Both the position numbers and the translations under genes were made by a program. The notes below the pieces were generated by a model that was not told the DNA's origin, made no database searches, and worked only from the letters and a program-made list of their open reading frames with translations. From Escherichia coli (GTDB lineage Bacteria > Pseudomonadota > Gammaproteobacteria > Enterobacterales > Enterobacteriaceae): DNA of 571 nt. The stretch is from the NCBI RefSeq assembly GCF_003334335.1, contig NZ_QOWQ01000169.1; one strand, given 5' to 3'. Below are positions 1-571 of the stretch, in pieces. The stretch's first letter is position 1; every line of letters starts with the position of its first letter.

Positions 1-571
1 TATCGGAGACATCGCGCAGCGGGGAGACAGTACGCTACCGCTACGATGACGCGCACAGTGAGTTACCGGCGACGACAACGGATGCGACGGGCAGCACCCG
101 GCAGATGACCTGGAGCCGCTACGGGCAGTTGCTGGCGTTCACCGACTGCTCGGGCTACCAGACCCGTTATGAATACGACCGCTTCGGCCAGATGACGGCG
201 GTCCACCGCGAGGAAGGCATCAGCCTTTACCGCCGCTATGACAACCGTGGCCGGTTAACCTCGGTGAAAGACGCACAGGGCCGTGAAACGCGGTATGAAT
301 ACAACGCCGCAGGCGACCTGACTGCCGTTATCACCCCGGACGGCAACCGGAGCGAGACACAGTACGATGCGTGGGGAAAGGCGGTCAGCACCACGCAGGG
401 CGGGCTGACGCGCAGTATGGAGTACGATGCTGCCGGACGTGTCATCAGCCTGACCAACGAGAACGGCAGCCACAGCGTCTTCAGTTACGATGCGCTGGAC
501 CGGCTGGTACAGCAGGGCGGCTTTGACGGGCGGACGCAACGTTATCATTATGACCTGACCGGAAAACTCAC
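1..571 (+). CDS. rhs: Rhs-family YD-repeat protein, internal fragment of the conserved core (partial at both ends; first complete codon at nt 3, last complete codon ends at nt 569)
   Basis: Frame with codons at 3,6,9... is open across the whole window (189 codons); plus frames 1 and 2 carry in-frame TGA stops at 106-108 and 47-49. Translation contains repeated xxGxxxRYxYDxxGRLxxV-type motifs (e.g. LYRRYDNRGRLTSV at nt 225-266, MEYDAAGRVISL at 417-452, RYHYDLTGKL at 540-569), which are diagnostic of Rhs/YD-repeat proteins. From memory the sequence closely resembles the E. coli-type Rhs core; the paralog (rhsA/B/C etc.) cannot be assigned from this fragment, so only the family symbol is given. 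GC-rich codon third positions are consistent with the known GC-rich Rhs core. Confidence 0.9.
33..569 (+). repeat. Tandem array of ~9 degenerate YD repeats (protein-level repeats of ~20-21 aa; RHS repeat family)
   Basis: In-frame Y-D (or variant Y-G / Y-N) dipeptide codons at nt 42-47 (YD), 120-125 (YG), 174-179 (YD), 237-242 (YD), 300-305 (YN), 363-368 (YD), 423-428 (YD), 486-491 (YD), 549-554 (YD). Spacing between successive motifs is 78, 54, 63, 63, 63, 60, 63, 63 nt. Each is preceded by a glycine-containing turn and followed by G-(R/D/K)-(L/V/A). Nucleotide-level similarity between units is low, so this is a protein-structural repeat rather than a DNA direct repeat. Confidence 0.85.

Follow-up and report, generated by a model that had tools for sequence, protein, structure and literature searches.

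The 571-nt stretch of Escherichia coli DNA analyzed here (the window) raises the question of which gene it belongs to and what that gene does for the cells that carry it. The original prediction, made from the letters alone, placed it inside the YD-repeat core of an Rhs polymorphic-toxin gene, with a toxin and immunity module further downstream. We have very little doubt that the window covers codons 501-689 from the interior of an E. coli Rhs gene of the rhsD/rhsE subfamily, most likely rhsD, whose product would be a shell with a caged toxin.

By inspecting the six reading frames, we found that +3 is the sole open frame of the window, running from nt 3 to nt 569 with no stop in 189 codons, while each of the remaining five contains 2 to 11 stops. 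Any fully open frame was obtained in 514 of 20000 mononucleotide shuffles of the window (2.6%), and the GC content of frame +3 by codon position is 59/51/77%. Given that shuffles so seldom open and that the third position reaches 77% GC versus 51% at the second, we read frame +3 as real coding sequence. It is an internal in-frame segment of an Rhs core on the plus strand (3-569), equivalent to codons 501-689 of K-12 rhsD and predicted to form part of the wall of a YD-repeat beta-shell. First, YD-type dipeptides occur in the 189-aa translation at aa 14, 58, 79, 100 (as YN), 121, 141, 162 and 183, with a spacing of ~21 aa. Second, four matches to Pfam RHS_repeat (PF05593) were obtained, with E 1e-12 to 1.5e-6, and a further partial match was seen at each end. 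The four repeats, all on the plus strand, cover aa 38-72 (nt 114-218, E 3.9e-9), aa 79-115 (nt 237-347, E 9.7e-13), aa 121-156 (nt 363-470, E 1.5e-6) and aa 141-178 (nt 423-536, E 9.4e-9), the last two overlapping by one half-repeat. Third, the NCBIfam model YD_repeat_2x matched with E 3.6e-30 and 103 bits for a cut-off of 15.8, its best stretch being aa 79-119. Fourth, the window corresponds to positions 505-693 of the 1261 of NCBIfam RHS_core (NF041261), hence to the middle of the core, with E 1.8e-115 and 387 bits, a score to be read knowing that the curated cut-off of 2000 bits presumes full length and is beyond reach of a 189-aa fragment. The tandem ~20-aa YD repeats by which the Rhs/YD-repeat family is recognized (PF05593, TIGR01643) are all present, and the protein search that had been proposed as a check on the translation came out strongly in its favor.

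The YD periodicity is apparent in the protein only, not in the DNA, where a search for direct repeats in the window returned none, next to one weak 14-nt inverted pair. A terminator scan of the window was also negative. An Rfam scan run at a permissive threshold proposed CRISPR-DR20, with 19 bits for a gathering threshold of 42 and E 0.28, which we attribute to chance, and a promoter-like site at 523-551 (9/12 match) was not taken as functional.

By comparing the window with complete genomes, we found that it agrees base for base (100% identity) with the rhsD gene annotated in E. coli K-12 MG1655 and in many other strains. In K-12 it occupies nt 1499-2069 of the 4281-nt gene, encoding aa 501-689 of the 1426 residues of RhsD (WP_000014739.1), without a single difference over the 571 bases; the K-12 gene is followed by ybbC and by an orphan cassette, and the tip downstream of the window would, by this identity, probably be of the same kind. 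The window was matched in 3660 of 5426 complete E. coli genomes at a median of three places per genome, and thus represents a gene family that is found across the species and in several copies. In 1662 of these records, the best place reaches an identity of 99% or more. Nearly all matches are chromosomal, with 6 of 11725 places being plasmid-borne. Since about 80-87% of the sampled 100% matches are annotated as rhsD, we consider it probable that the window comes from rhsD itself, and rather unlikely that it comes from the rhsE-type paralogue discussed below. A second match of the window in K-12 could have been the rhsE remnant of that strain, a candidate that we ruled out since the remnant starts at nt 2188 and does not include the window segment; this second match is presumably a more distant rhsA/B/C paralogue.

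The core-end, tip and immunity features described hereafter were read on the K-12, rhsE-type and O157 genes. In K-12, rhsD can be read through 1426 codons without interruption, and the full-length protein scores 2787.7 bits against NF041261 over positions 1-1261 (cut-off 2000). RhsD carries a DUF6531 domain at aa 46-123, followed by YD repeats, the RHS domain PF03527 and the Rhs-associated core domain (Rhs_assc_core, TIGR03696; 82 bits for a cut-off of 32.5). Its core ends with two DPxGL motifs (D1232 and D1254), the second one lying within PLQQIDPMGL (aa 1249-1258), 1.7 kb downstream of the window in K-12. A core-end motif of this type had been predicted downstream, and we recovered it as PLQQIDPMGL in K-12 rhsD, as PIQVIDPMGL in the rhsE-type gene and as PVNGIDPLGL in O157 rhsD; in all genomic contexts found, the frame runs to the PxxxxDPxGL motif, continues into a C-terminal extension and is followed by a small gene. 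In an alignment of the core-end autoproteases (E 3.5e-26), D1232 and D1254 fall on D1324 and D1346 of Pseudomonas protegens RhsA, two residues whose mutation abolishes both C-terminal autocleavage and T6SS-dependent killing (PMC8765631). In K-12, the GC content is 0.61-0.70 across the rhsD core and 0.30-0.46 over the tip and the downstream genes, in agreement with the classical description of Rhs elements as a GC-rich core with an AT-rich tip (PMC2935791).

The tip of K-12 RhsD consists of the 168 aa, encoded by AT-rich DNA, that follow the core-end motif, and it matches DUF4329 with E 6e-37. Zhang et al. 2012 (PMC3482391) described this domain as Tox-JAB-2 and gave E, H[ST]H, S, D as its signature; in RhsD the HTH motif is intact at aa 1356-1358. 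DUF4329 is also labeled 'RNase', though at second hand (PMC7216683). Forty nt past the rhsD stop starts ybbC, whose product belongs to Imm-NTF2-2 (E 7e-26), the immunity family paired with Tox-JAB-2 in the tabulation of Zhang et al. 2012 (PMC3482391). The toxin tip and immunity gene expected downstream of the window are therefore in place in K-12, and the tip together with ybbC is at least 99% conserved in 1855 genomes. A PDB sequence search with the DUF4329 tip gave zero matches, and the literature that could be searched yielded no experiment on whether the RhsD tip is toxic or YbbC protective. In some strains, namely H31 (NZ_CP080085.1) and H108 (NZ_CP145663.1), the rhsD tip/ybbC region and the orphan cassette are broken up by IS1A.

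Altogether, three tips were found on near-identical cores, namely DUF4329, DUF6973 and an SAA-like one. The last of these accounts for the orphan toxin cassette that had been anticipated at such a locus: past ybbC, K-12 carries a truncated core end with PVNGIDPLGL, to which another tip is joined; this tip has a weak SAA-like match and is found in 2738 genomes. Two small ORFs follow this orphan tip, of 86 aa (L001 15882-16142, L001 being the K-12 rhsD locus) and 65 aa (L001 16175-16372), and match positions 1-85 and 99-163, respectively, of one and the same 163-aa NCBIfam family, PRK14710. Their sequences give the impression of one immunity gene, serving the orphan tip, that has been split and has possibly decayed. 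In some genomes, a 'YbbD family protein' is annotated at their position. The O157:H7 strain SS17 has, linked to ybbP as in K-12, a full-length Rhs gene whose main tip is of this orphan type; its core end is PVNGIDPLGL and the DUF4329/ybbC module is absent, in agreement with the SAA-like tip reported for RhsD of EDL933 (PMC7216683). By aligning the two loci, we found that SS17 nt 1-3731 matches K-12 nt 1-3737, and that SS17 nt 3520-4670 matches K-12 nt 4722-5873 at 99.5%. Since SS17 aligns with K-12 in two flanking blocks, the extra ~1 kb of K-12, made of the new tip, the immunity gene and a duplicated core end, is best read from these sequences as an insertion ahead of the older tip. Such an arrangement corresponds to C-terminal displacement as modeled by Jackson et al. 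2009 (PMC2935791). Within the window, the O157 allele has 94.9% DNA identity and differs at 11 of 189 residues. The strain-specific 3' end that had been announced for this locus hence holds in so far as the tip differs between K-12 and O157, but there are few different tips, with identities of at least 99% across 1855 genomes (DUF4329 with ybbC) or 2442 genomes (the rhsE-type tip with its downstream gene ydcD).

To what kind of particle such a gene may give rise is indicated by its solved relatives. The window matches the Rhs shells of Tse5 of P. aeruginosa (8cp6, E 9e-51), RhsA of P. protegens (7q97, 5e-46), an Rhs protein of Salmonella bongori (8qjd, 1e-40) and RhsP of Aeromonas (8h8a, 3e-35). 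These proteins have the shell, the DUF6531 region and the two-aspartate core-end autoprotease in common with RhsD, whereas their toxin domains differ from that of RhsD. The RhsD DUF6531 domain (aa 46-123) aligns with the N-terminus of the Tse5 chain and with residues 238-339 of the RhsA chain, whose numbering is ~60 below that of the full-length protein, and the aligned stretch of RhsA overlaps the published plug. [quoted passage not shown] YD-repeat shells are also built by the TcB/TcC cocoons of Tc toxins and by metazoan teneurins, and Tc toxins have the aspartyl autoprotease in common with Rhs proteins; both groups differ, however, in their capping domains and delivery routes, and teneurins neither cleave nor cage a toxin (PMC8765631). 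Moreover, teneurins match the window far more weakly (E 1e-19 to 1e-3), and TcC chains match the RhsD core-end autoprotease alone, also weakly (E 6e-9 to 2e-6). We found no TcB beta-propeller in RhsD and no TcA/TcB partner genes around K-12 rhsD, which sets it apart from Tc toxins.

From these relatives, we infer how RhsD would work. The about nine YD repeats of the window would fold into antiparallel beta-hairpins and help to wall off a closed cocoon round the protein's own C-terminal toxin, with the shell closing round the ~168-aa tip. The aspartyl autoprotease (D1232 and D1254, in the two DPxGL motifs) would then cut after ...DPMGL, at about residue 1258, leaving the tip caged. In T6SS-positive strains, the particle would mount the VgrG spike and be fired into neighboring bacteria, where the toxin would be freed, while the producer would be shielded by the immunity protein encoded directly downstream. 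In K-12, the toxin would be Tox-JAB-2/DUF4329, a predicted metal-dependent hydrolase and proposed nuclease, and the immunity protein YbbC (Imm-NTF2-2). Recombination within the conserved core would bring in new tips, each displacing its predecessor to a downstream position as a silent orphan.

Part of this scheme can be compared with the rhsE-type locus, whose order is yncH-vgrG-rhs-ydcD-ISAs1 and which is intact in strains such as 510016, M217 and 219. There, vgrG, a T6SS gene, ends 67 nt upstream of the start of the rhsE-type gene. The core ends with its own DPxGL motif and is followed by a DUF6973 tip (E 2.7e-12) and then by ydcD. The 3' end of the rhsE-type gene is overlapped by ydcD over 17 nt (L002 9710-9726, L002 being the 510016 locus), which suggests translational coupling of ydcD and rhsE, and a small antisense gene, yncO, is annotated across the 3' end of ydcD (L002 10107-10292). 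A PDB sequence search with the DUF6973 tip gave best matches of E 0.16 or worse, and we found no direct experimental test of its activity in the literature. The RhsE tip is unrelated to the K-12 RhsD tip; homology to the K-12 orphan tip was also considered, but the part in common, an HC..C motif of 17 residues (single comparison, E 0.005), is too little to establish it.

The original prediction had also called for PAAR, VgrG and T6SS genes to be looked for, and here the outcome was divided. On the one hand, vgrG is adjacent at the rhsE-type locus. On the other hand, K-12 rhsD has ybbP upstream and no adjacent vgrG, and we found no T6SS genes within 10-12 kb on either side of it. The first 45 aa of RhsD (L001 10503-10640), MSGKPAARQGDMTQY..., contain the string AARxxDxxxY and, at aa 5-8, a literal PAAR, this segment of about 45 residues being all that precedes DUF6531. 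AARxxDxxxY resembles the published prePAAR motif AARxxDxxxH. In RhsD, the motif is followed by no transmembrane segment and no full PAAR domain. The N-terminus gave a partial, sub-threshold match to Pfam PAAR_motif, restricted to positions 52-69 of 70, that is its last 18 (E 0.11), and weak matches to stand-alone PAAR proteins of the PDB over their last ~28 residues (E 0.12-0.55). In contrast to these ~45 residues with a partial PAAR-like string, the N-terminus of RhsA comprises a prePAAR motif, transmembrane helices and a full PAAR (PMC8765631). Taken together, linkage to the T6SS is directly visible for the rhsE-type paralogue, through vgrG, and would extend to rhsD by the likeness of the two genes.

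These observations bear on another reading, in which the gene survives in its host as a genomic relic, with a real Rhs core that is neither expressed nor delivered, and serves no present function, where the T6SS is absent or the copy frameshifted. Compared with 510016, K-12 has suffered a clean deletion that removed vgrG and the first 2187 nt of rhsE, hence its 5' half (L006 8661-11446 versus L002 3257-7690, L006 being the K-12 rhsE site), while the tip, ydcD and the ISAs1 copies were kept. K-12 is not known to have a functional T6SS. Given the loss of vgrG at the rhsE site and this presumed lack of a functional T6SS, rhsD may be inert in K-12. Immediately upstream of the 0.66-GC start of rhsD also lies a 0.27-GC stretch (L001 10200-10499), a candidate site for silencing by nucleoid proteins. 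In strain Z1323CEC0012, both rhsD (L008 4503-8790) and the rhsE-type gene (L007 4223-8324) are annotated as frameshifted, which could reflect true decay or an assembly error in long near-identical repeats. However, K-12 rhsD is intact over its whole length with its catalytic residues retained, and the wide conservation of the tip with ybbC also speaks against a relic. We therefore regard a relic as a possible, if clearly the less probable, state of the gene. It would moreover be compatible with the caged-toxin explanation, as it is a statement on one host and not on the gene family.

A different question is whether the window comes from the rhsE-type paralogue, which has the same shell, adjoins a T6SS vgrG and has a DUF6973 tip followed by ydcD. 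In 510016, M217 and 219, the same 571 bases are found 100% identical in the rhsE-type gene and at the same gene position (nt 1499). Although K-12 rhsD (L001 10503-14783) and the 510016 rhsE-type gene (L002 5503-9726) occupy separate places on the chromosome, their nt 1-1950 agree at 99-100% identity, after which the core is mosaic, with 83-93% identity at ~nt 2100-2550 and 3450-3750, before the unrelated tips. Alleles of rhsD from K-12 and O157, at the same site, differ by ~6.5% over the aligned core (nt 1-3731) and by 5.1% in the window. Because identity across sites is that high while same-site alleles differ by ~6.5%, these sequences suggest gene conversion between the rhsD and rhsE paralogues. 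The RhsE tip with ydcD is itself common (2442 of 5426 genomes), and a non-rhsD annotation of the core was found on 4 of the 30 best rows and on 3 of the 15 sampled rows with 100% identity. Against an rhsE-type origin, the rhsD annotation dominates among the 100% matches, the rhsE-type copy of Z1323CEC0012 is just 97.9% identical to the window whereas its rhsD copy is 100% identical, and the K-12 rhsE remnant lacks the window segment entirely. Thus, the best-matching paralogue (rhsD or rhsE-type) varies by strain, and we hold an rhsE-type origin to be unlikely though of some weight. The window alone is insufficient to tell rhsD from an intact rhsE-type gene, or which toxin follows.

Much less probable is that the Rhs protein acts without a T6SS, either as an internal toxin-antitoxin-like module or as a surface-exposed, Tc-toxin-like protein. 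Salmonella RHS elements are reported to be able to act as type II toxin-antitoxin modules (PMC7043789), and rhsD indeed has neither a vgrG beside it nor a complete PAAR. Nevertheless, T6SS Rhs effectors account for all of the solved structures nearest in sequence, with Tc toxins and teneurins far behind, an identical core is linked to vgrG at the rhsE site, and the partner genes of a Tc toxin were not found near rhsD.

We see a similarly slim chance that the core of the window is fused to a tip outside the two frequent types, acting as an uncharacterized toxin, or, more realistically, to a DUF4329 or DUF6973 tip with undescribed biochemistry; were this so, the novelty would sit 1.7 kb outside the window. 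Finally, the 97-aa minus-strand ORF listed by a program at 255-548 is most unlikely to be a real overlapping gene, and is judged a codon-bias by-product of the sense gene: it is also open in the 95%-identical O157 allele, but this openness in both alleles is expected opposite a sense frame with 77% third-position GC, as is the low number of stops (2 in the window, compared with 9-11 for each of the remaining antisense frames) in the frame that holds it, its start codon shifts from ATG to GTG between the window and O157, and it is annotated in none of the records examined.

The window thus belongs to one of the founding Rhs elements of E. coli K-12, if it comes from rhsD as is probable. Earlier published work on E. 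coli Rhs elements reportedly came from the Hill laboratory. As to what is new, nothing is to be sought in the window, as the original prediction rightly said of it, or in the layout of its surroundings. The rhsD/rhsE core of E. coli has been described since the 1980s-90s (background in PMC2935791), and the anatomy of the locus, with core, AT-rich tip, immunity gene, orphan cassette and displacement, is already published (PMC2935791, PMC3482391). The residual novelty lies outside the window, in the biochemistry of the tips. For work on this family, since rhsD and rhsE have ~1.95 kb of 99-100% identical 5' core in common, the consequence is that short reads falling here point neither to a single Rhs paralogue nor to a single toxin type.
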